Notes under the pieces: generated by a model
What the model was told of the DNA's origin: nothing
The model's input: only the letters and a program-made list of their open reading frames with translations
Databases searched by the model: none
Shown here: positions 1-7,989 of the stretch, piece after piece
How positions within the stretch are numbered: the first letter of the stretch is position 1
Layout: every line of letters starts with the position of its first letter
Program-made: the position numbers and the translations under genes
Source: a virus
Lineage: Duplodnaviria; Heunggongvirae; Uroviricota; Caudoviricetes
Strand: one strand, 5' to 3'
IMG/VR virus record: IMGVR_UViG_2630968500_000011
Coordinates: 1 to 7,989 of that record
DNA length: 7,989 nucleotides

Positions 1-26
1 GGTGAAGTCGTTTGGTCATACGACAT
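1..26 (-). CDS. 5' end (8 codons, MSYDQTTS...) of a minus-strand gene that runs off the window start; product unknown
   Basis: ATG at 26..24 on the minus strand, preceded by AGGAG (complement of 32-36) with a 5-nt spacer. Frame is open to position 1. Too short to classify. Confidence 0.25.
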
Positions 27-166
27 AGCCGCTCCTGTAGATCAGAGCGGCGATAGCTGGACCAATGGGAAACATCAGATTATGGCTGGAGTTGTATTCT
101 CTTTACGCCGTGCTTTGGAACAGGCTGAAGTCTTTCCATCAGACCCTGAATGGAAATGGCCTTTTT

Positions 167-412
167 CTATTTGTCCAAATTCGGAGAGTACATTTCAGAA
201 AGTTGGTCAGAAAGTCGCACTCGAAGAGCATCAGCCAACTGTTTTCTGATTTTTTCAGGTAACTCGTCGGCATCGCAGAAACAACAACGCTCGATCATGT
301 TGAAAGCCGATTCGTAGAACTGTTTCTGCTGAGTGTCGCTGAGACAGGAAAAGAGCGACGTTACGATGATTTTATTAATTGCATTATCAAGTTCTTTTTC
401 ATCAAAAGTCAT
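167..412 (-). CDS. hypothetical small protein (81 aa), acidic, with a CCFC motif
   Basis: ORF 167..412 on minus strand. ATG at 412..410 is preceded by AAGGA about 7 nt upstream (complement of ~420-424). Composition looks like a soluble protein. Overlapping plus ORF 65..262 lacks an RBS. No family recognised. Confidence 0.55.
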   Translation of the reverse strand: MTFDEKELDNAINKIIVTSLFSCLSDTQQKQFYESAFNMIERCCFCDADELPEKIRKQLADALRVRLSDQLSEMYSPNLDK

Positions 413-665
413 TTGATTTTCCTTTTATGTATACGGACTTAAAAGGATACCACCGAGCCTGAAGTGGTGAAAAGACAGGCACATAACAGCTAAGTATTTT
501 CAACCAGAGAGAATCCTTAGCGTTGTGGTGAATGCGGCTCAGCGCACGCGGGTTAAGGTTGAGGCTGACAGTCGACCTTCTGTGGATACCCACCCGCCTG
601 GTGTGCAACCTTCGCCAGGCACCGGGAGGCACCCGGCACCACAACTTTATGCTGTGTGTAGTCTT

Positions 666-713
666 GGCGGTACCAGCTTGTACCCTTGCTTCCGGCTGGT
701 ACCGTCCTTTTTA
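666..713 (+). terminator. candidate intrinsic terminator / leader hairpin upstream of the operon
   Basis: 12-bp stem 666-677 / 695-706 (one G-U pair), 17-nt loop, followed by CTTTTTA (T-run 708-712). Loop is longer than in typical terminators. Confidence 0.4.
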
Positions 714-801
714 CAAAACAGAGAAGAGCATCACCGGACGACGGGCTCATAACCCAATCCATCCGGGCGGCAGTCACCGCAGGTGTTCTTCTCTGTTTTG
801 T
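713..801 (+). promoter_or_regulatory. leader structure: 15-bp perfect inverted repeat (713-727 ACAAAACAGAGAAGA / 787-801 TCTTCTCTGTTTTGT) enclosing 59 nt, ending 24 nt before the RBS of the first operon gene
   Basis: Arms are exact reverse complements, extendable to about 20 bp with wobble pairs (to 732 / 782). Enclosed segment is GC-rich with internal CCGGA/TCCGG pairing. Function as RNA stem or DNA operator pair is inferred. Confidence 0.45.
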
Positions 802-835
802 GGAGAAACTAATATCTTGTGCAGAGGAAAATAGA

Positions 836-1753
836 ATGAAATTACCAAAATTTCGTAACGCAATTGTGTACCGAGCAACATTACCTAGTATACAGGCTAT
901 TGAAGGGCATCTTCTCGAACTCCCTTATTCTGAAATCGGGGAAACAGAATTTTCACGGTCCTCTTTTGTAGAGAATCCTGTCACTGGTGAACTGGTAACT
1001 CCGATATCTGGTGGGTACGCAATGGTAATCCGTCATGATCAGAAAATAATTCCCCGACATGTCGTCATGAAAGAAGCTAATTCTCGAATCCAAACAATCG
1101 AAAATATGTCCGGGAATAAATTAAAGCGTGCCGAACGACTGGCCATTATTGATAACGTACGAGTAGATCTATGCAAACAGGCATTTGTTAAGTCTACGCT
1201 GATTCTTGCATTGTACAGCACTGATGAGAAATTATTGGTAATCAACACAACCAATAAAATAATAGCCGGTATGGTATGCGCAATGCTGATTAAGGTTGTC
1301 GGTTCAGTGAAAACAGAAACAATCAACATCAGTGATATCAAGAATGGACTGACTACACGCCTGAAGAACTACATCAATGGTGCAGCCAATGCATTTGAAG
1401 GATTCACTGTCGGGAATTATATTCAGCTATCACGCTACGCAGATCAAAAGGAAATTATTCGCTACTCAGCTGAGCATGAGTCAATTCAAAGCGAACTGGC
1501 CGATAGCCTTAGTAGTAGTTTCACTGCTGATAAAATGGAGTTATCCGGTTGCGGTGTGACCTTCATTCTTACCGAAAATTTCCATTTTTCGCGCATCAAT
1601 ACTCAATCTCAGACATTTAATGATGAAGATGATAAAGCATTCCAGTGGCGTCATCAGACTGGCACTGACCTTTTCCAATTCAGCAAGGTAGTTAATTTGA
1701 TGTGTGACCTTCTTTCTTACAAAGAAGATAAAAGCCAAAATCCAACAACTTAA
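836..1753 (+). CDS. RdgC-like recombination-associated protein (305 aa)
   Basis: ATG at 836 with GAGGAAA RBS at 825-831; the track ORF 686..1753 begins upstream without an RBS. N-terminus KFRNAIVYR and the segment AMVIRHDQKIIPRHVVMK resemble the RdgC family (FKNLMVYR and ICARKEEKILPSPVIKQ in E. coli RdgC, recalled from memory). Length matches the family (~303 aa). Confidence 0.75.
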   Translation: MKLPKFRNAIVYRATLPSIQAIEGHLLELPYSEIGETEFSRSSFVENPVTGELVTPISGGYAMVIRHDQKIIPRHVVMKEANSRIQTIENMSGNKLKRAERLAIIDNVRVDLCKQAFVKSTLILALYSTDEKLLVINTTNKIIAGMVCAMLIKVVGSVKTETINISDIKNGLTTRLKNYINGAANAFEGFTVGNYIQLSRYADQKEIIRYSAEHESIQSELADSLSSSFTADKMELSGCGVTFILTENFHFSRINTQSQTFNDEDDKAFQWRHQTGTDLFQFSKVVNLMCDLLSYKEDKSQNPTT

Positions 1754-1757
1754 AAAA

Positions 1758-1801
1758 ATTGCAGCAATCATCCCATGTCAAATGGGCTGGATTGCTGCAA
1801 T
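1758..1801. repeat. 11-bp perfect inverted repeat (ATTGCAGCAAT ... ATTGCTGCAAT) with nested 5-bp inner hairpin (CCCAT/ATGGG), intergenic
   Basis: Arms at 1758-1768 and 1791-1801. Preceded by an A7 run on the plus strand, so on the minus strand the hairpin is followed by a T7 run and looks like an intrinsic terminator facing antisense transcription. Could also be a protein-binding palindrome. Confidence 0.5.
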
Positions 1802-1842
1802 CAAAATTCAGCGCGGTGCAGCGCATATACGTGGAGAACAAA

Positions 1843-2379
1843 ATGTCATTTATTAAAACTTTTTCCGGGAAGCATTTTTATTATGACAGGATAAATAAAG
1901 ACAACATCGATATTAACGATATCGCGGTTTCCCTTTCAAATATCTGTCGCTTTGCCGGCCATCTTTCACACTTCTACAGCGTCGCCCAACATGCGGTGCT
2001 TTGCAGCCAGCTGGTACCGCAGGAATTTGCTTTTGAAGCGTTAATGCATGATGCAACAGAAGCGTATTGCCAGGACATTCCCTCACCACTGAAACGCCTT
2101 CTTCCTGACTATAAACGGATGGAAGAAAAAATAGACGCCGTAATCCGTGAGAAATACGGGTTACCCCCGGTTATGAGTACGCCCGTGAAATATGCCGATC
2201 TCATCATGCTGGCAACCGAACGCCGCGATCTCGGGCTTGATGATGGCTCTTTCTGGCCTGTACTGGAAGGTATCCCGGCAACAGAGATGTTCAAAGTTAT
2301 TCCACTGTCGCCAGGCCATGCCTATGGGATGTTTATGGAACGTTTTAACGAGTTATCGGAGTTACGCAAATGCGCATGA
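1843..2379 (+). CDS. yfdR: HD-domain 5'-deoxynucleotidase, YfdR/YfbR family (178 aa)
   Basis: ATG at 1843 with GGAGAA RBS at 1833-1838; the track start at 1759 would cover the palindrome and has no RBS. HD-superfamily motifs present: H in VAQHAVL, HD in LMHDATEAY, downstream Asp residues. Length and MSFIKTFSGKHFYYD N-terminus match my recollection of E. coli CPS-53 YfdR. Confidence 0.8.
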   Translation: MSFIKTFSGKHFYYDRINKDNIDINDIAVSLSNICRFAGHLSHFYSVAQHAVLCSQLVPQEFAFEALMHDATEAYCQDIPSPLKRLLPDYKRMEEKIDAVIREKYGLPPVMSTPVKYADLIMLATERRDLGLDDGSFWPVLEGIPATEMFKVIPLSPGHAYGMFMERFNELSELRKCA

Positions 2380-3017
2380 ATGTTTTCGAAATGGAAGGGT
2401 TTCTTCGCGGGAAATGTGTACCGCGAGATCTGAAAGTGAACGAAACAAACGCTGAATATCTGGTGCGTAAATTTGCTGAAGCGGAGGCCAAGATTTCGGC
2501 TCTGTCCGAAGACCACCAGAAAGCGATTGAGTCAATTAAGCAGGCTGATTCGGCTGTTAAGTTGGCACACGAGAAGTTTTCAGCGCTGGCGGCGGAGAAT
2601 GCGGGGCTGAAGTCATTTGGCGACAAGCTTAATGAGATGCATAACGACTTAAACGGCGAAGGCACGGGCATTCAGGGGCGCGCAGAGGTAGCGTGCCAGC
2701 AGGTGGCTCTTGAAGCGGCAATGGAAGAATTTGACGCTATCAAAACTCCAGCCACCGACGCCTTCCTGGATGAAGTGCGGGCGGATGCTCGCAACGAGGG
2801 GATTAACTATACCGCCAGCCGCCTCGCTGCCGCATTCAATCATGGTTTCGTTGATAAGCCGCTGGCTGAAGTCTGCGACGTGGTGCGCATGATTCTGGAC
2901 ACCAAAGAAGAACTGGCAAACTCCACGCTCCCATCGGCTGATGGGATTTCTGGCGAGTACGCAGAGAAGTTTCTCGCAGAGTTCGCCGCCCAACTTCGCC
3001 AGGAGCCAGCCCAATGA
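2370..3017 (+). CDS. hypothetical phage protein, Ala/Glu-rich and probably helical (215 aa)
   Basis: ATG at 2370 with GGAG at 2358-2361 (8-nt spacer); an alternative ATG at 2376 forms an ATGA overlap with the yfdR stop (2377-2379). Stop overlaps the next start (ATGA at 3014-3017). No family recognised. Confidence 0.65.
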   Translation: MRMNVFEMEGFLRGKCVPRDLKVNETNAEYLVRKFAEAEAKISALSEDHQKAIESIKQADSAVKLAHEKFSALAAENAGLKSFGDKLNEMHNDLNGEGTGIQGRAEVACQQVALEAAMEEFDAIKTPATDAFLDEVRADARNEGINYTASRLAAAFNHGFVDKPLAEVCDVVRMILDTKEELANSTLPSADGISGEYAEKFLAEFAAQLRQEPAQ

Positions 3018-3547
3018 GTATCGACAAACAGGCGCTGCGTGAAATCGCAGCGGCAGCAGTTGGCGCACATGAGCGCCTTAGTGTTATGCCGCCTGATGAC
3101 ATTTTCGATATCTCACTGGCAGAAGGAACTCAGCTTGATGCAGATATCACTGCCTTGAACGCGCTGAACTCCGCAGCAAACCCCACTACCGTGCTGGCGA
3201 TGCTGGATGAGTTGGAAGCCGCAAAAAAGCGCATAGCAGAACTGGAGGGGGGCGCATTCAATCCCGCAATTCTTGATGTGGTAGCAGAACGCCAGCGGCA
3301 ACAGTCGGTTGAAGGATGGACTCCTGAACATGACAACGCATATCAAAATAGCGAATTAGCAGATGCAGCGGCTTGTTACGCAATTCATGCGCACAACCAA
3401 GGTTTCTCCACTCCAGCACATTGGCCGTGGTCTCCTGACTGGTGGAAGCAATCAGGAGCACGCCGCGACTTAGTAAAAGCTGGCGCTCTTATTCTGGCAG
3501 AAATTGAACGTATTGACCGCGCCGCTGGCATTGGTAAGGGGGAGTGA
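3014..3547 (+). CDS. Ea22-like (ead) phage protein with a DUF550-like C-terminal region (177 aa)
   Basis: N-terminus MSIDKQALREIAAAA and the segment NPTTVLAMLDELEAAKKRIAELE resemble ead/Ea22-like proteins of lambdoid phages. C-terminal WTPEHDN...HWPWSPDWWKQSGARRDLVKAGALILAEIERIDRA resembles DUF550. Both recalled from memory. ATGA overlap with the upstream gene. Confidence 0.7.
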   Translation: MSIDKQALREIAAAAVGAHERLSVMPPDDIFDISLAEGTQLDADITALNALNSAANPTTVLAMLDELEAAKKRIAELEGGAFNPAILDVVAERQRQQSVEGWTPEHDNAYQNSELADAAACYAIHAHNQGFSTPAHWPWSPDWWKQSGARRDLVKAGALILAEIERIDRAAGIGKGE

Positions 3548-3978
3548 TGCTTCAACATCAAATGCAGCCAACATTTAACACCTGCATGGCTACCTGCGTT
3601 GCAATGGTTGCCGGTCAACCTGTCGATGAGGTAGTGGAACGCTGGCATCAGAAATTCCACGACAAAACAGACTGGCTCGACGACGCGCTGGATTATTACA
3701 AAATCCCGTATTTTTACGGAAGCCAGCGCAAGGCCGAATTGCTTTACGGGTTTATTTACTTCCTGACCGTTCCGTCACTGAACATCAAAGGCGGCCTGCA
3801 TCAGATTCTGATGTCGTTAACGGCAGAACGCGGCATAGAAGTATTTGACCCGGCAATGGGTCGGCCAGGATCAAAATATTACGTTTGGGGTGAAGCGCAG
3901 AACGATGATCAATTCGGCGTTATCTCCTGGTGCGTCGATTTATCGGTTCCGGTAGTGCAACAGAAAGGTGAGGACTAA
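3547..3978 (+). CDS. putative papain-fold cysteine peptidase, C39-like (143 aa)
   Basis: ATG at 3547 overlaps the upstream stop (TGATG at 3545-3549); the track start at 3544 is GTG. Motif order Q(7)...C(13) in QPTFNTCMATCVAMVAG, then His in GGLHQILMSL, then FDPAMG, matches the C39 peptidase Gln/Cys...His...Asp-Pro arrangement. Functional call is an inference. Confidence 0.5.
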   Translation: MLQHQMQPTFNTCMATCVAMVAGQPVDEVVERWHQKFHDKTDWLDDALDYYKIPYFYGSQRKAELLYGFIYFLTVPSLNIKGGLHQILMSLTAERGIEVFDPAMGRPGSKYYVWGEAQNDDQFGVISWCVDLSVPVVQQKGED

Positions 3979-3981
3979 CCC

Positions 3982-4827
3982 ATGAGCACTATTACCAAAG
4001 AACTGGCAAAGCTGTTCAGAAAAATTACGAATTCTGAAATTGATGCGGAGGGAAACGCTCATGTTGTTTTATCTCCTGCTGATAGCCTCCTGATTAATAA
4101 TGCGCGTATCGCGCTGGCATCGCTCGAAGCGGAGCCTGTGGCGTGGGCGCACAGATTAATCAACAAGCGTAACGGAGTCGTTCACCCTTGGGTTTACGGT
4201 AGCGCAGAGGCGTGTCCAAGCGAGGGGGATATCTTCAATATTGAGGTAATGCCGCTCTACACCGTCCCTCCAGCGCCGGTATCTGTGCCCGCTGCGATGG
4301 AAATGGATGATGACTTTGACAGCGCGTTTGAACACGGAAAAGCTGTCGGCTGGAACGCCTATCGCGCCGCCATGCTTCAGGCCGAACCTGTAAGTAATAG
4401 TGATGAGTTACCGCTGGACTATCTGCAAGGACACAAAGACGGCCTGGAGTGGGCTGCACAATTGGCAGAAGCCAATCATCCGCAAACAGGTGACTGGTTG
4501 TACGATGACCCAATCGATCTTGCCAGGGCGATTCGCAAAGGTCCGGATATGCCTACTGTTCAGGGTGGCAATTCTCCGGTAACTCCGGATGCTTGGATAA
4601 GCTGTAGTGAGCGAATGCCAGAAATGGGAGAGCGACAATGCTATGTGTTAGCAGCTGACTTTAAAAACAACTACCCACCAAACATCCCCAACACTCAGGT
4701 CGGCGTATATGGCGACTGGTTTAATGATGGCAATCCCACTTGGGATGACGGTGATGGCGAAGACCTGTATCTCAAAGAGGTAACCCACTGGATGCCTCTA
4801 CCAGAACCGCCGCAGGAGGTAAAGTGA
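3982..4827 (+). CDS. DUF551-domain phage protein (281 aa)
   Basis: ATG at 3982 with AGGTGAGGA RBS at 3966-3974. C-terminal WISCSERMPE...CYVLAA...VTHWMPLPEPP is the characteristic DUF551 signature. N-terminal two thirds have no recognised family. Confidence 0.75.
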   Translation: MSTITKELAKLFRKITNSEIDAEGNAHVVLSPADSLLINNARIALASLEAEPVAWAHRLINKRNGVVHPWVYGSAEACPSEGDIFNIEVMPLYTVPPAPVSVPAAMEMDDDFDSAFEHGKAVGWNAYRAAMLQAEPVSNSDELPLDYLQGHKDGLEWAAQLAEANHPQTGDWLYDDPIDLARAIRKGPDMPTVQGGNSPVTPDAWISCSERMPEMGERQCYVLAADFKNNYPPNIPNTQVGVYGDWFNDGNPTWDDGDGEDLYLKEVTHWMPLPEPPQEVK

Positions 4828-5399
4828 TGAACAACTTAATGATCGACCTTGAGACGATGGGGAAAAATAAGGATGCGCCGATCGTTTCTATTGGCGCAGT
4901 GTTCTTCACCCCAGAAACCGGAGACATCGGACAAGAATTCTATGCGGCTGTCAGCTTGGACAGTGCTATGGAGCAAGGGGCCACACCTGACGGCGACACC
5001 ATCCTGTGGTGGTTGAAACAAAGCCCTGAAGCACGAGCTGCAATCTGTATTGATGATACTTTGTCGATCAGCGATGCACTCTCTGAACTGAGCCATTTCA
5101 TTAATCGGCACGCAGACAATACGAAATATTTAAAAGTCTGGGGTAACGGAGCCAACTTCGACAACGTAATTTTACGCGGAGCTTATGAGCGAGCAGGACA
5201 AATCTGCCCATGGGCGTACTGGAATGATCACGATGCGCGCACGATCGTTACGCTTGGGCGTTCCATCGGATTCGACCCAAAAATGGACATGCCTTTCGAT
5301 GGCGAACGGCACAACGCCCTGGCTGATGCTCGTCATCAGGCAAAATATGTTTCCGCTATCTGGCAGAAATTAATTCCTGCCACCAGCACAGAATTATGA
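4827..5399 (+). CDS. DEDDh-family 3'-5' exonuclease, Rv2179c-like phage exonuclease (190 aa)
   Basis: ATG at 4827 overlaps the upstream stop (TGATG), with AGGAGG RBS at 4814-4819; track start 4824 is GTG. Exo motifs: MIDLETMG (D, E), WGNGANFD (D), HNALADARH (H...D). TILWWLKQ matches the phage Rv2179c-like subfamily. Confidence 0.8.
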   Translation: MNNLMIDLETMGKNKDAPIVSIGAVFFTPETGDIGQEFYAAVSLDSAMEQGATPDGDTILWWLKQSPEARAAICIDDTLSISDALSELSHFINRHADNTKYLKVWGNGANFDNVILRGAYERAGQICPWAYWNDHDARTIVTLGRSIGFDPKMDMPFDGERHNALADARHQAKYVSAIWQKLIPATSTEL

Positions 5400-5435
5400 T
5401 TTTCCCGGGTGCAGCCGGTTTTGATGGAGAAAATT

Positions 5436-5717
5436 ATGAACACCTTGTTTTTACTGATGGCTGAATTCAATACCCCTAACATTGAACTCTCAGCAGTTAG
5501 CCAAAAGTACTTTGGCATGAGTCCAGCCACGGCAGAAGCAAAAGCAAACGCTTGTAAGTTGCCCGTTCCAACATATCGCATCGGCACATCACAAAAAGCA
5601 AAACGTTGCATCAATATTCAGGATCTTGCGGAATACATAGACAAAAGACGAGAAGAAGGACGTATCGAGTGGGAACAGGTCAGAACAAGCAAACAGAAGG
5701 GCAAAGAACATCACTAA
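5436..5717 (+). CDS. PrtN-family (pyocin-activator-like) DNA-binding protein; probable excisionase/recombination directionality factor or regulator (93 aa)
   Basis: ATG at 5436 with GGAGA at 5426-5430 (5-nt spacer); alternative starts at ATG 5424 and GTG 5409. MNTLFLLMAEF...YFGMSPATAEAKANACKLPVPTYRIG...IQDLAEYIDKRR resembles the PrtN family. Terminal position before a terminator fits an Xis-like role (inference). Confidence 0.7.
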   Translation: MNTLFLLMAEFNTPNIELSAVSQKYFGMSPATAEAKANACKLPVPTYRIGTSQKAKRCINIQDLAEYIDKRREEGRIEWEQVRTSKQKGKEHH

Positions 5718-5720
5718 AGA

Positions 5721-5748
5721 AAAAACCCGCCTAAAGGCGGGTTTTCAA
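5721..5748. terminator. bidirectional rho-independent terminator shared by convergent genes
   Basis: AAAAAACCCGCC-TAAA-GGCGGGTTTTC: GC-rich stem (5725-5731 / 5736-5742), 4-nt loop, T-run on the plus strand and T6 on the minus strand. Lies 4 nt after the plus-strand stop (5715-5717) and 17 nt after the minus-strand stop (5765-5767). Confidence 0.8.
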
Positions 5749-5764
5749 AAAGCACCAGCTATGA

Positions 5765-5938
5765 TCATGCTGCTTTGCGACGACGAAGCTTACCCTGCTG
5801 CTCTTTACCAGAGACAGTAGCGTGAGTGAACGCATTAGGAGCAGCCTTCATCAGAACTTCAACAGCAGCACCCATACCTGCGAATGCTTTCATTGTGTCG
5901 AACTTAACCTGTGGCTTGGTTGCTTTTTGATCTTTCAT
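5765..5938 (-). CDS. small basic protein, 57 aa (MKDQKATKPQVKFDTMKAFAGMGAAVEVLMKAAPNAFTHATVSGKEQQGKLRRRKAA); function unknown
   Basis: Not in the ORF track. Hand translation of the minus strand: ATG at 5938..5936 preceded by GGGAG (complement of 5945-5949) with a 6-nt spacer, stop at 5767..5765, then the strong terminator. No family recognised. Confidence 0.6.
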   Translation of the reverse strand: MKDQKATKPQVKFDTMKAFAGMGAAVEVLMKAAPNAFTHATVSGKEQQGKLRRRKAA

Positions 5939-6008
5939 AGAAAACTCCCGAGACAGTAAAGGCGTCTCTAACCCTCTCTTTAAAGCTAGCTTGTTTCGCT
6001 AACTTATG

Positions 6009-6029
6009 CCAATCGATCATGTCGATTGG
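6009..6029. repeat. 21-bp palindrome CCAATCGA-tcatg-TCGATTGG, candidate operator
   Basis: Perfect 8-bp arms with a 5-nt spacer, about 70-90 bp upstream of the small-ORF start. No adjacent T-run, so not a terminator. Confidence 0.4.
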
Positions 6030-6104
6030 TGACATCGTTTCTTAGTAGTTTAAGCACAAAACGACTGCCATAGATGTACCTTTAAGGTAATCTGGACGGG
6101 TATC

Positions 6105-6117
6105 CTACAATTTGTAG
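6105..6117. repeat. 13-bp palindrome CTACAA-t-TTGTAG
   Basis: 6-bp perfect arms around a single central base, 18 bp downstream of the stop of the minus-strand 177-aa gene. Could be a binding site or a weak hairpin. Confidence 0.3.
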
Positions 6118-6134
6118 ACCCTTCTCGTCTATAC

Positions 6135-6668
6135 CTACTGAGCAAATTTAAGAAAGATATCCTGCAGCTCATCAATGACTGCAGACATCACATAACCGCA
6201 CTGTTCCATGCGGAAACCAAAAGACTCGTAATACTGCACCAGTTCTGGTACTGGCTCTACAATGTGGACAACTTTACATTCAACAGCTTTACAAAATATA
6301 AAAGCACTCATAAGAGTGAGTAAAACCATGCGCCCTTTCAATGGGTGAGATTCATCTTCTCTAGAAAACCTTTCGATCATATGGATACGAAAGATGTTTT
6401 CTTCAACCCCATAAACACAAATTGCTGCTCCTGATGGTATTCCCTGAACCCGACCTTGCTGAACAAGTTTTATGCAGAACTCATACTTTTCTCTGGAGTT
6501 GCCATAGGTACTTAACGCATAGTCCCATTCAAGCTCACCATAGCCACCACACAGAATCTTGTAATCATCATCACTGAGCGGACCAACAGCAAGAGGTAAG
6601 CCGACATGATCAATAATCAACTGGATATTGTTACGTACTGATTGACCTATCTCGTCCAGGGTAAGCAT
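6135..6668 (-). CDS. hypothetical protein (177 aa), AT-rich gene; tentative GNAT-related / acyltransferase-like fold
   Basis: ORF 6135..6671 minus; the second ATG (6668..6666) is better placed behind GAGAGG. The ELEWDY and IERFSRE segments and a C-terminal beta-alpha pattern (KVVHIVEPVPELVQYYESFGF) loosely resemble GNAT-fold or LuxI-type acyltransferases. Weak, memory-based. Confidence 0.6.
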   Translation of the reverse strand: MLTLDEIGQSVRNNIQLIIDHVGLPLAVGPLSDDDYKILCGGYGELEWDYALSTYGNSREKYEFCIKLVQQGRVQGIPSGAAICVYGVEENIFRIHMIERFSREDESHPLKGRMVLLTLMSAFIFCKAVECKVVHIVEPVPELVQYYESFGFRMEQCGYVMSAVIDELQDIFLKFAQ

Positions 6669-6700
6669 CATGGCCTCTCAAGCGGAACACTAAAAGTCGC

Positions 6701-6706
6701 ATTATA
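6701..6706 (-). promoter_or_regulatory. candidate -10 hexamer (TATAAT on minus strand) for the 177-aa gene
   Basis: Perfect TATAAT on the minus strand, 29 nt upstream of the start codon. No convincing -35 element. Confidence 0.25.
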
Positions 6707-7218
6707 TCTCATTCTTAAGCCGCGTATGGATTACACCTTGAAATGAAAACGCCGGGTTCCCAATAGGCTCCCACAGAGTGTATAACTACTTGTTTTTCAA
6801 CAACGGTACATCCTATCGAGCATTGGTGCAACGCTAAACCGACCACTCCAGTGAACGTCAGTTTTTTCAGGCATTGCGCTGGTTTGGTTGATTTTTTGCA
6901 TTTCAGAATTACCGTGCATTTTCAAATGTAGAGATTATTTTATCGATATATCATGGGGTTATGTTATTCAGCATCACTGTTCAGGAGGCTCAATAGCGGG
7001 GTACTATACCATAACAACAGGAAGCGCCTGTCTCATTGCAAAAGAAAATTGAGATCCTCTCAAGGCATGAAGCTCTCACGAAGTGATGGAAATAATCTTA
7101 TTAGCCGTTAACTTTGTTAAGGCCAATGATAAACAATCCAGGTTCGACGATAAATAAAAAATCACACATTAAACTCTGGTAATATATCTCCCTGCTAATA
7201 GCATTGATAGAGAAAAAA

Positions 7219-7245
7219 GAACCCAATAAATATTGGGTCCTTTTA
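7219..7245. terminator. candidate intrinsic terminator downstream of the truncated minus-strand gene (bidirectional-looking)
   Basis: Stem ACCCAA / TTGGGT (7221-7226 / 7233-7238) with 6-nt loop. Flanked by TCTTTTTTCT on the minus strand and CCTTTT on the plus strand. Lies 37 nt downstream of the stop at 7282-7284. Confidence 0.5.
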
Positions 7246-7281
7246 TATAATGCCTTCCATACTATCGAAGAACTTCACATA

Positions 7282-7989
7282 TTATTTCTCCGATTTAACC
7301 CCGAACAAATCATAAATTAATTTAGAAGTGTCTGTAAGTATTTTAATCTCTTCCTTTGAGGTTGGGTCAAACGACTTCGCGAAGCTAATTAATTGTGGTG
7401 CAGCATCTCGCATTTTGCTTAAAATATCAGGATCGAGCGTTCCTTCATTCACCAGATGTGACATCTTATCCAGATAGCCATCAAAATTCATTTCTCCCCC
7501 ATCAGCCAGACGCTTCATCTCTCCCAGGTACTTCTTCATATCACGTTGAGATAATTTTTCAAACTGAGCTTTCAGGTAGCTCTCATTATTTTCATTAATA
7601 TACACTGTTTCTGATAAATCTGCGTAGGCACTAGAATATGAAAGTGAAATTAACAGCGAAGCAAATAATTTTAAGCTGTTGTCATCATGTTCCTGGCAGG
7701 CATTAACAAACGTTAAAAAACCAGAACCTATTGCTTGAAAATGTATATTCGCTAAAGGTTCATTATCCTTAGATTCCTCATAAAATAGCTGAACCGTGGA
7801 GGGAAGGTCATTCTTAGTTTCTACATCAAAAGTACATTGTTCAATGGGCATTGCATCTTTATTATCCCCAAGATTACATATACTATTAATCGCGAAATGA
7901 AAAATAGCCCGGTCAACAACTGATGCAATAAAGTCACGATCGTTTAAATCCTCATCAGTGCAATCGTCAATATACTTATTGACCCACAT
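7282..7989 (-). CDS. C-terminal part (at least 235 aa) of a hypothetical protein on AT-rich DNA; gene continues beyond the window end
   Basis: Minus-strand frame open from the window edge to TAA at 7284..7282. Coding-like composition. The Met at the edge may be internal. No family recognised. Confidence 0.6.
   Translation of the reverse strand: MWVNKYIDDCTDEDLNDRDFIASVVDRAIFHFAINSICNLGDNKDAMPIEQCTFDVETKNDLPSTVQLFYEESKDNEPLANIHFQAIGSGFLTFVNACQEHDDNSLKLFASLLISLSYSSAYADLSETVYINENNESYLKAQFEKLSQRDMKKYLGEMKRLADGGEMNFDGYLDKMSHLVNEGTLDPDILSKMRDAAPQLISFAKSFDPTSKEEIKILTDTSKLIYDLFGVKSEK

Follow-up and report, generated by a model that had tools for sequence, protein, structure and literature searches.

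Do two AT-rich genes that lie next to each other at the end of a prophage belong to one acquired cassette, or does the end of the prophage fall between them? A sequence-only reading of the window, by which we mean the whole stretch of 7,989 nt that was analysed, had proposed the former for two minus-strand genes, both of which exist as open reading frames (6135–6671 and 7282–7989, the latter of 235 codons). The entire window is an exact substring of the genome of E. coli G5, where it forms the right end of a 42.6-kb mEp460-like lambdoid prophage inserted in dusA. The explanation that we lean towards as a whole is that the region is the attR of this prophage in the 5' end of dusA, at which two unrelated AT-rich genes have been juxtaposed, the phage gene being acetyltransferase-like cargo that acts with a small downstream gene, orf57, in a toxin-antitoxin-like or exclusion role. 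Features are located on the minus strand unless another strand is given.

The junction between prophage and chromosome

The prophage/chromosome junction is located at the att core ATGCTCGA (6816–6823), between the phage gene, ORF178, and the 235-codon gene, which is yjbM. The core was identified as the attR junction by a four-way comparison of attP (mEp460), attB (K-12), attL (the integrase side in G5) and attR (the window): it is common to all four, and the arms are swapped in the manner expected of site-specific recombination. Phage DNA extends as far as 6815; the host DNA, 6816–7989, carries yjbM with its terminator, the region upstream of native dusA and 105 nt from the dusA 5' end. When the reverse complement of the window is compared with the K-12 sequence from yjbM to dusA, 5 mismatches are present in 1174 nt as far as 6816, beyond which the sequences diverge. 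On its phage side the core is flanked by about 110 bp of dusA-like sequence that is similar but non-identical. The phage-side arm of attR (6741–6815), including CCTATTGGGAACC at 6755–6767, is common to the mEp460 attP, the window, a Salmonella prophage and a prophage variant carrying a PanAT pair, described below. The displaced native dusA 5' fragment (6797–6919) was recognised as a RefSeq pseudogene, by its identity to the 5' end of K-12 dusA and by translation; its 35 native codons (6815–6919) run on into phage DNA, forming a 40-codon stub.

The dusA-specific integrases are a described family (PMC4482086, Farrugia et al. 2015), and the G5 prophage has the features of the DAI elements: an insertion in the 5' end of dusA, the native 5' fragment at the distal end, imperfect direct repeats and a tyrosine integrase gene adjoining the restored dusA. 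The integrase gene (WP_001514812, G5 positions 4424244–4425341) and the restored dusA (4423118–4424155) are situated 42.6 kb away, outside the window. The same arrangement is seen in DAI prophages and islands (PMC4482086) and in mEp460 (NC_019716), with the insertion in the dusA 5' end, a replacement 5' end supplied by the phage, the displaced native fragment at the far end and the tyrosine integrase beside the restored gene. There is nothing unusual in the junction itself, which is already known. mEp460 has the genes for gp23, gp24 and the excisionase in this same order, and its gp23 is 100% identical in amino-acid sequence. The structural modules are different, mEp460 having a lambda-like tail-fibre gene and the G5 prophage an HK97-type head and a contractile tail, a difference that has no bearing on the finding.

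Because the att junction lies between the two genes, which thus belong to different replicons, a joint cassette of ORF178 and yjbM is rejected. A single horizontally acquired accessory or defence cassette is scarcely credible, in spite of the AT-richness, common strand and lack of a named function of both genes, and in spite of the variable presence, high polymorphism and species restriction of yjbM itself: the att core and the dusA remnant stand between the genes, so that the four-way comparison already refutes it, and yjbM occupies the same place in prophage-free K-12. Moreover, the phage gene is found without yjbM in Salmonella, mEp460 and eight other genera, and yjbM without the phage gene in about 4,000 genomes. 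A prophage junction can bring AT-rich orphan genes side by side as an artefact, and the att site must be placed before a cassette is called.

The host gene yjbM and base composition

The gene at 7282–7989 is host yjbM (DUF2713) and represents the C-terminal 235 codons of a frameshifted yjbL-yjbM. Its product matches PF10897 over the full length (profile positions 1–235 of 235, E=4e-166, 550.6 bits against a cut-off of 27). In K-12, yjbM is present with more than 99% nucleotide identity at the same position, in the order zur-yjbL-yjbM-dusA; the gene in the window has the flanks of the K-12 gene and is likewise split from yjbL, with no feature setting the two apart. The sequence-only reading had considered this gene to be cut off, but the window ends exactly at the annotated yjbM ATG; the ancestral gene, of which intact yjbL-yjbM homologues have 328–340 amino acids, is frameshifted just upstream, and the frameshift has been mapped in G5. 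That reading had also accepted that it would fall if both proteins were conserved genes of this locus in phage-free relatives, which is the case for one of the two, yjbM, in K-12.

The intergenic region between yjbM and dusA (6920–7281) is the native dusA upstream region, near-identical to K-12, and a terminator scan places a terminator-like hairpin of yjbM at 7215–7244. Each gene had been said to possess its own terminator or promoter-like signals; the yjbM hairpin bears this out, but ORF178 has no terminator of its own, the true one being located after orf57 (5721–5746). The host gene next to the phage module is a different one in Salmonella, and an O2:H6 strain has no yjbLM at all. yjbM is an E. 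coli-specific DUF2713 gene, for which no PADLOC family was matched at E≤1; the AF2 model of the full-length YjbL-M protein is unusable, with a pLDDT of 41. The species restriction, strong polymorphism and frequent frameshifts of yjbLM suggest a fast-evolving host gene.

Computed base composition confirms that there is a shift, from 50.9% GC in the operon (2370–5717) to 38.9% in 6135–7989. The drop had been described as sharp after about position 5750; it is real, but gradual, with 45% at 5401–5800, 40–44% over 6001–6800 and 35–37% over 7001–7800. It is also not uniform (41.7% for ORF178, 36.4% for yjbM), nor unique in the window, the rdgC-yfdR region (836–2379) having 42.6%.

The phage genes and the spacer between them

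The prophage end had correctly been recognised as Xis-like. The last gene of the early-left operon of the prophage, on the plus strand at 5409–5717, encodes a PrtN-family excisionase (PF11112, E=4e-23; phrog_1300 "excisionase", E=8e-40; mEp460 gp25 is annotated as an excisionase). Next to it, the terminator scan reveals a G+C-rich hairpin followed by a T run (5721–5746, not assigned to one strand), which is kept in Atlantibacter and in the PanAT-variant prophage. On the minus strand this terminator closes the ORF178-orf57 unit; on the plus strand it probably also ends the xis operon. An Rfam scan of 5600–7989 yielded terminator hairpins only, all under gathering scores. A hairpin at 6305–6318 was rejected as an ORF178 terminator; it is located inside the open reading frame and is weak, with five pairs only.

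ORF178 encodes 178 amino acids (6135–6671), or 177 from the second ATG (6135–6668), which is the RefSeq start and is used by homologues too. The protein, mEp460 gp23, is acidic, with a pI of 4.81 and a net charge of -10 (pI 4.3–5.5 in ten homologues). Neither gene had been nameable from the sequence, which for ORF178 remains so at the level of sequence families: a Pfam search identifies yjbM as DUF2713 (E=4e-166) and returns nothing for ORF178, which also lacks significant matches to curated Pfam and NCBIfam acetyltransferase models. For all four proteins, the only names obtained from Pfam, NCBIfam, PADLOC and PHROGs were DUF2713 and the PrtN excisionase, and ORF178, orf57 and the excisionase match no family of PADLOC-DB 2.0 at E≤1. 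None of 40 family members (30 of alignment A3, including the query, and 10 remote relatives) matches a Pfam GNAT model even at E≤10.

The structure prediction and Foldseek search that had been suggested for ORF178 do point to a fold. The AF2 model of gp23 (pLDDT 88.7, pTM 0.87) has the mixed alpha/beta fold of the GNAT family, and a search of the PDB with this model gives 273 matches at E≤1e-3, of which the best 50 are all GNAT-family proteins; TacT3, TacT2, AtaT and KacT are among the structural neighbours. In the BFVD set of viral structures, only generic GNATs are found, with TM-scores up to 0.59. Compared to protein N-terminal acetyltransferases (NatD/Naa40, Ard1/Naa10, RimI), which are among its closest known systems, gp23 has 10–14% identity, and the ranking among GNATs is nearly flat. 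When sequence profiles are compared to the PDB, the close-family profile gives chance matches only, while the broad family profile gives four matches, all GNATs and all marginal (E 0.04–1), with the loop and the YxxxGF motif in register; these weak matches are nourseothricin and aminoglycoside acetyltransferases. The predicted structure thus indicates that gp23 carries a divergent GNAT fold. In motif B (YxxxGF, alpha4), Tyr148 is invariant and Phe153 nearly so, in relatives down to 17% identity. The motif A loop, H109-P-L-K-G113-R-M as compared to the canonical Q/R-x-x-G-x-G/A between beta4 and alpha3, has one of the two glycines only; His109, Pro110, Leu111 and Gly113 are invariant in close homologues, and the loop aligns with HR-GHGVG of nourseothricin acetyltransferase. 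gp23 may be an active acetyl-CoA-dependent acetyltransferase, in which the HPLKG loop would substitute for the pyrophosphate-binding loop and the invariant Tyr148 would serve as general acid, with Glu100 on putative strand beta4.

The true partner of ORF178 is orf57 ("small57", mEp460 gp24; 5765–5938; phrog_2741, E=8e-36), which lies outside the stretch that had been proposed as the cassette. It encodes a basic 57-residue protein (pI 10.5) and is the constant downstream neighbour of the GNAT gene. Its dN/dS is about 0.08–0.1, and the GNAT gene is also under purifying selection. The orf57 profile gave nothing significant against Pfam and the PDB.

Between the two genes, a conserved spacer (5939–6134) contains four candidate RNA hairpins (for instance CCAATCG...CGATTGG, 6029–6009), proposed from pairing and covariation; it has no Rfam match. 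In the 16 distinct sequences, from which the structure was also derived, 85% of cells are paired, against 24–45% when the partners are slid. Covariation, scored on these same sequences, reaches 0.25 against at most 0.12, and none of 500 shuffles attains this value. Compensatory and G-U changes occur in helices 2 and 3; a local GAGAC/GUCUC hairpin is the weakest helix, with 72% paired. RNAalifold also paired the stop-codon region with the GUCUC box over a long range, but this was not adopted, and the local hairpin was tested instead. The spacer could function as a regulatory RNA.

Upstream of the GNAT gene, a TATAAT -10 element (6701–6706), about 33 nt from the start, is the candidate module promoter. 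It is conserved: a TAnAAT sequence occurs equally far from the start in Salmonella, Atlantibacter, Pseudescherichia, Franconibacter and other contexts. A consensus scan does not call it, there being no good -35. Judged from these signals, the module's own promoter would drive the GNAT gene in the lysogen, and transcription from the native dusA promoter probably reads through as well, since there is no intervening terminator.

Distribution and possible function of the module

The GNAT family is small, with only 94 representatives (at 50% identity) at E≤1e-3 among 1.84 billion proteins. About 6.6% of complete E. coli genomes carry a member, O157:H7, O111 and O145 strains among them, as do Salmonella and Enterobacter prophages. 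At every one of 115 loci, the GNAT gene has a homologue of the small open reading frame as its downstream neighbour, after a gap of 77–248 nt, which in the window is taken up by the structured spacer (about 190 nt). Among the genera with such loci are Salmonella, Enterobacter, Atlantibacter, Edwardsiella, Photorhabdus, Xenorhabdus, Brenneria and Shewanella. The position of the module varies: it lies near the att site, in the Q-holin region or in the tail module, it follows cI directly in Brenneria, and in a P2-like prophage of Edwardsiella it occupies the hotspot between gpA and gpQ that is defined in PMC9122126.

A comparison of two prophage variants locates an exchangeable cargo slot of dusA-integrating prophages at 5952–6740, between the att arm and orf57 and taken up here by the GNAT gene and the spacer: homology stops at about 6740 and restarts exactly at the ribosome-binding site of orf57. 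In about 200 genomes, the slot contains instead a Panacea-domain antitoxin gene (PF13274, E=2e-19) and a gene of 128 amino acids. PanA-type toxin-antitoxin pairs have been described (PMC8832971), and this one occupies exactly the same slot in sister prophages. The GNAT protein, however, has no sequence or fold relation to PanAT, which is alternative cargo and not a homologue. ORF178 is thus variably present at the locus, a point that the sequence-only reading had proposed to check, and the idea in that reading of accessory cargo beside the excisionase end holds for ORF178, in a slot that hosts a toxin-antitoxin pair in other strains, but not for the 235-residue host protein. In the PanAT variant, orf57 is retained without the GNAT gene. 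Between E. coli and Salmonella, synonymous divergence amounts to 1.5 in the GNAT gene but to 0.08 in orf57, which indicates that the two recombine apart and may not be strictly interdependent.

The GNAT gene, spacer and orf57 are a self-contained unit that moves between temperate phages, with a conserved -10 element before it and a terminator after it. It shows the properties of a moron: a candidate promoter, the terminator at 5721–5746, slot exchange, multiple contexts and a GC content for ORF178 of 41.7% against 50.9%. Like the cargo of known moron sites and hotspots (lambda rexAB after cI; P2 old/tin between gpA and gpQ, PMC9122126), it is autonomous, with a promoter-like element and a terminator, differs in composition from its neighbours and is polymorphic in presence; unlike known hotspot defence genes, it has no PADLOC match. 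A literature search found no paper on these genes, and the P2/P4 hotspot papers, including PMC9122126, do not mention an acetyltransferase. The module recurs where exclusion and defence genes are known to sit. It is undescribed cargo with a probably defence- or toxin-antitoxin-like function, which we infer. In such a role, gp23 would act with the 57-residue protein as partner, regulator or antitoxin, to the benefit of the lysogen. More tentatively, GNAT gene, spacer and 57-residue protein could together be an undescribed three-part temperate-phage module of Enterobacterales and Shewanella and a new acetylation-based toxin-antitoxin-like or exclusion family. If this is correct, the effector/partner architecture would be new for phage-borne immunity.

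Membership of the GNAT-RHH toxin-antitoxin family (TacAT, AtaRT, KacAT) is ruled out by gene order, partner type and charge. No upstream RHH/DUF1778 antitoxin gene is present, only the promoter region, att arm and dusA stub being found upstream of the GNAT gene; the partner is located downstream, after the spacer, has 57 residues, is basic and has no known fold. GNAT-RHH toxins have a basic tRNA-binding surface, which gp23, with its acidic pI and negative charge, does not share, nor does it match a Pfam acetyltransferase model. It is possible, if doubtful, that the pair is a toxin-antitoxin or abortive-infection module of another kind, in which the GNAT effector acetylates a translation-related or other essential target and orf57 or the spacer RNA neutralises it. 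The GNAT toxins among the structural neighbours, the autonomous two-gene architecture, the alternation with a PanAT pair and the rex-like, old/tin-like and stx-like positions are consistent with this, and a leftover orf57 would be harmless if it were an antitoxin. Against it, apart from the departure from the GNAT-RHH systems, stand the charges, acidic for the GNAT protein and basic for its partner, which are the reverse of the usual toxin and antitoxin, the missing PADLOC match and the distance between the genes, which excludes translational coupling.

Two further readings are improbable. In one, gp23 acetylates the 57-residue protein at its N-terminus or a lysine, in which case the functional product would be the small basic protein in acetylated form, binding to nucleic acid or the ribosome. 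In the other, for which there is little expectation either, the GNAT protein is a counter-defence or lysogenic-conversion enzyme directed at a host or foreign molecule, for example a host immune protein, an antibiotic or a small molecule, with orf57 as an unrelated neighbour. AcrVA5, which inactivates a host immune protein, offers a parallel; the profile matches to nourseothricin and aminoglycoside acetyltransferases would fit, although their E-values are marginal, the Q-holin contexts would mean late lytic expression, and orf57 can occur without the GNAT gene. Unrelated neighbours would, however, hardly be expected to stay together in all 115 loci, as these genes do even where identity falls to about 40%, in Shewanella and a P2-like phage.

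The prophage end in dusA and its host neighbour

The entire 7989-base window is contained as an exact substring in the chromosome of E. coli G5 (NZ_CP060065), for which RefSeq annotates a 42.6-kb lambdoid prophage at this region. At the first end of the prophage, dusA is adjoined by a tyrosine integrase. This is followed by genes for structure, lysis, antitermination and replication, by the repressor, and then by the early-left operon (window 1–5717), in which RefSeq annotates rdgC, yfdR, Ea22-like and DUF551 genes, a 3'-5' exonuclease and, last, a PrtN-family excisionase. Past the excisionase, RefSeq lists two small minus-strand "hypothetical" genes and a 105-nt pseudogene ("tRNA-dihydrouridine synthase, incomplete"), beyond which lie a DUF2713 gene with a frameshift and, further on, zur, yjbJ, dinF and lexA. 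Immediately upstream of rdgC, a frameshifted, incomplete hypothetical gene is annotated (window 525–811, or 6826–7112 of the G5 locus L001); window 525–834 contains several overlapping ORFs on both strands, in a local GC-rich stretch (51.7% over 401–800).

When the reverse complement of window 6550–7989 is compared with the yjbM-dusA region of K-12, 1174 nucleotides align with 5 mismatches; the match spans the yjbM ATG to 105 nucleotides into dusA, and the sequence beyond is unrelated. A four-way alignment of attP (the integrase-gp23 intergenic region of mEp460), attB (K-12), attL (the integrase side in G5) and attR (the window) reveals an 8-bp core, ATGCTCGA, at window 6816–6823, around which the arms are exchanged in the classic pattern. 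Given this exchange and the K-12 match, window 6816–7989 is host DNA and everything up to 6815 is phage DNA. The displaced start of dusA consists of 35 native codons followed by RMYRC and a stop, forming a 40-codon stub. The mEp460 attP contains its own version of the dusA 5' end, which shares about 85% identity with the native sequence and takes its place on integration, a behaviour reported for dusA-associated integrases (PMC4482086). Host dusA acquires this phage-derived 5' end, a possible promoter swap. The anatomy of the junction is established, and is that of an ordinary, textbook dusA-integrase prophage end.

The sequence-only reading had described an AT-rich cargo cassette of two minus-strand genes, of 177 amino acids (window 6135–6668, here ORF178) and of at least 235 amino acids (window 7282–7989). 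Both are present in an ORF scan of the window, the former starting at its second ATG according to RefSeq and its homologues, which gives 177 residues. The estimate of base composition by eye was correct (50.9% GC at 2370–5717 versus 38.9% at 6135–7989). The drop is real but not sharp: the fall is gradual and uneven (41.7% in ORF178, 35.7% in the yjbM-dusA intergenic region and 36.4% in yjbM), and low GC also occurs inside the phage operon, with 42.6% for rdgC-yfdR.

Uncharacterised cargo is indeed present beside the prophage end, but the 235-residue ORF is not part of it. Along its full length this ORF matches Pfam DUF2713 (E=4e-166), and it is yjbM of K-12, which shares the zur-yjbL-yjbM-dusA synteny while its dusA carries no prophage; yjbM is thus a host gene, already known and ordinary. 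The junction and the resulting reassignment of the cassette are as good as certain. In G5 as in K-12, yjbL and yjbM are split by a frameshift near codon 81–84, and the pair is also frameshifted in APEC37. The observations on it come from window 7282–7989 and beyond, L001 13583–14568, L026 5427–6431 and L031. The window ends at an ATG internal to yjbL-yjbM, a codon that is GTG (Val) in intact alleles. Homologues are nearly all from E. coli, with an intact length of 328–340 residues, and intact yjbL-yjbM of many strains contains a variable amino-terminal decapeptide repeat of the KDKLDN type. The gene is highly polymorphic: in comparison with a second allele, 32% of the non-synonymous sites and 51% of the synonymous ones are changed (dN/dS about 0.49, for this one allele pair). 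In at least one O2:H6 strain it is missing and zur abuts the prophage. Its restricted range, frameshifts and polymorphism suggest that it is evolving fast or decaying, and is not a housekeeping gene. The AF2 model of intact YjbL-M is unusable (pLDDT 41).

The GNAT-fold protein and its small partner

The product of ORF178 is 100% identical to gp23 of mEp460, located between attP and the excisionase, and belongs to phrog_4350, to which PHROGs assigns no function. It has no match in Pfam, NCBIfam or PADLOC; Pfam likewise returns nothing for the other 29 members of its alignment (A3) or for 10 remote relatives. The family is small, with just 94 cluster representatives at E<=1e-3 among 1.84 billion proteins. 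The AF2 model, built from the 30-sequence alignment, is confident (pLDDT 88.7, pTM 0.87), and the protein has a GNAT fold: Foldseek gives 273 PDB matches at E<=1e-3, the neighbours listed being GNAT-family proteins, and the neighbours in BFVD are chiefly viral acetyltransferases of the GNAT type. A profile including the remote relatives matches only GNATs in the PDB, with weak E-values (0.04–1) and alignments in register: HPLKG lies opposite the R-G-x-G loop, and YYESFGF opposite motif B. Residues W49 and Y148 are invariant among relatives down to 17% identity, and Y148 is located at the site of the GNAT general-acid tyrosine. As tyrosine and loop are conserved, the protein is somewhat likely to be an active acetyltransferase. 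It is acidic (pI 4.8, net charge -10), as are its homologues (pI 4.3–5.5).

An ORF of 53–59 residues, homologous to window 5765–5938 (minus strand; orf57, gp24 of mEp460, phrog_2741, pI 10.5), is always located downstream of the GNAT gene on the same strand, at 77–248 nucleotides in 115 of 115 loci, a count to which GTDB genomes and IMG/VR also contributed. The dusA prophages of E. coli and Salmonella carry the pair beside attR, the Salmonella host neighbour being a TraF_2-family gene rather than yjbM. Elsewhere, it is found between the Q antiterminator and holin (Atlantibacter, phage Eeyore), late in the early region just upstream of the lysis genes, the Q-holin equivalent (Enterobacter, Edwardsiella), within a myovirus tail module (Photorhabdus), immediately after a cI-type repressor (Brenneria), in Shewanella at about 40% identity, and, in a P2-like prophage of Edwardsiella, in the interval from gpA to the portal gene, published as the old/tin defence hotspot (PMC9122126). 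In the Edwardsiella tarda prophage (L023 1982–3448), this gpA-gpQ hotspot holds the pair and two more genes (243 and 235 residues), neither with a Pfam match. In Eeyore (PP925821; L028 4298–4459), the 53-residue orf57 homologue downstream of the GNAT homologue is unannotated, and the deposited annotation has several overlapping ORFs of 30–38 residues in its place.

Both genes are under purifying selection (dN/dS about 0.04–0.1 in closer comparisons). A TAnAAT -10 element is kept across contexts about 33–38 nucleotides upstream of the GNAT start (TATAAT at window 6701–6706), and the terminator scan places a hairpin terminator downstream of orf57. Taken together, promoter element, terminator, mobility and selection fit the definition of a moron; the strict linkage of the pair and its multiple moron sites are established.

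The spacer and the exchangeable slot

The conserved spacer between the two genes (window 5939–6134, minus strand) is 156–197 nucleotides long in 16 distinct Enterobacteriaceae copies, and four hairpins are kept. In the derived structure 85% of cells are paired, versus 24–45% with the partners slid, and the covariation score of 0.25, versus at most 0.12, is reached by none of 500 shuffles; structure and test use the same 16 related sequences, and helix 4 is weak. Two helices each contain several compensatory and G-U changes. No Rfam family matches the spacer. It is probably a structured RNA, which may be regulatory or processed.

The cargo is variably present: 358 of 5426 complete E. coli genomes carry the GNAT-orf57 pair, and about 200 other genomes match at the orf57 end only. 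In all five of the latter inspected, the content from the att arm to the ribosome-binding site of orf57 is different: each contains a Panacea-domain protein (PF13274, E=2e-19), adjoined in four by a 128-residue gene and in the fifth by an IS903B transposase in its place. These dusA prophages retain orf57 (L026 3506–4707, L027, L029, L030 and L031). Homology between the variants is lost at about window 6740 and regained exactly at GGAGTTTTCTATG. In PanAT toxin-antitoxin systems, Panacea is the domain of the antitoxin, PanA (PMC8832971). From these breaks and this content, the slot (5952–6740) alternates between GNAT gene plus spacer and a putative toxin-antitoxin pair; the alternative cargo itself is established, and in these variants orf57 persists without the GNAT gene. 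Salmonella dusA prophages (L013–L017) share the GNAT-orf57-excisionase end, with an orf57 almost identical to that of E. coli; the synonymous divergence between the two hosts (dS 1.5 for the GNAT gene, 0.08 for orf57) reveals the same mosaicism and indicates recombination between the genes. The 128-residue gene is weakly membrane-protein-like, and in one sister prophage a CoiA-like gene is inserted between orf57 and the excisionase.

Expression and possible role of the pair

In lysogens, the GNAT gene would be transcribed from a promoter of its own. Since the scan finds no terminator between 6920 and 6668, transcripts that start at the native dusA promoter are also likely to run through the 40-codon stub into gp23. 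In the free phage, the dusA-like mimic of attP lies upstream of the GNAT gene. This mimic (mEp460 locus L004 3665–4003; window side 6797–6919) has the same orientation as gp23, so a dusA-type 5' region precedes gp23 in both free phage and lysogen.

The pair is GNAT-based accessory cargo of prophages, found in no curated family, in no defence catalogue and in no paper that literature searches brought up. GNAT protein and orf57 together might benefit the lysogen as a toxin-antitoxin or exclusion module, which we propose only tentatively. The alternation of the slot supports a role of the toxin-antitoxin or defence kind, and GNAT toxin-antitoxin systems share its fold and mobility; however, these are defined by an RHH antitoxin encoded upstream and a toxin that is basic, and the pair has neither. 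It is rather improbable that the orf57 protein is the substrate of the enzyme. A role of the enzyme in counter-defence or lysogenic conversion is rated just as low.
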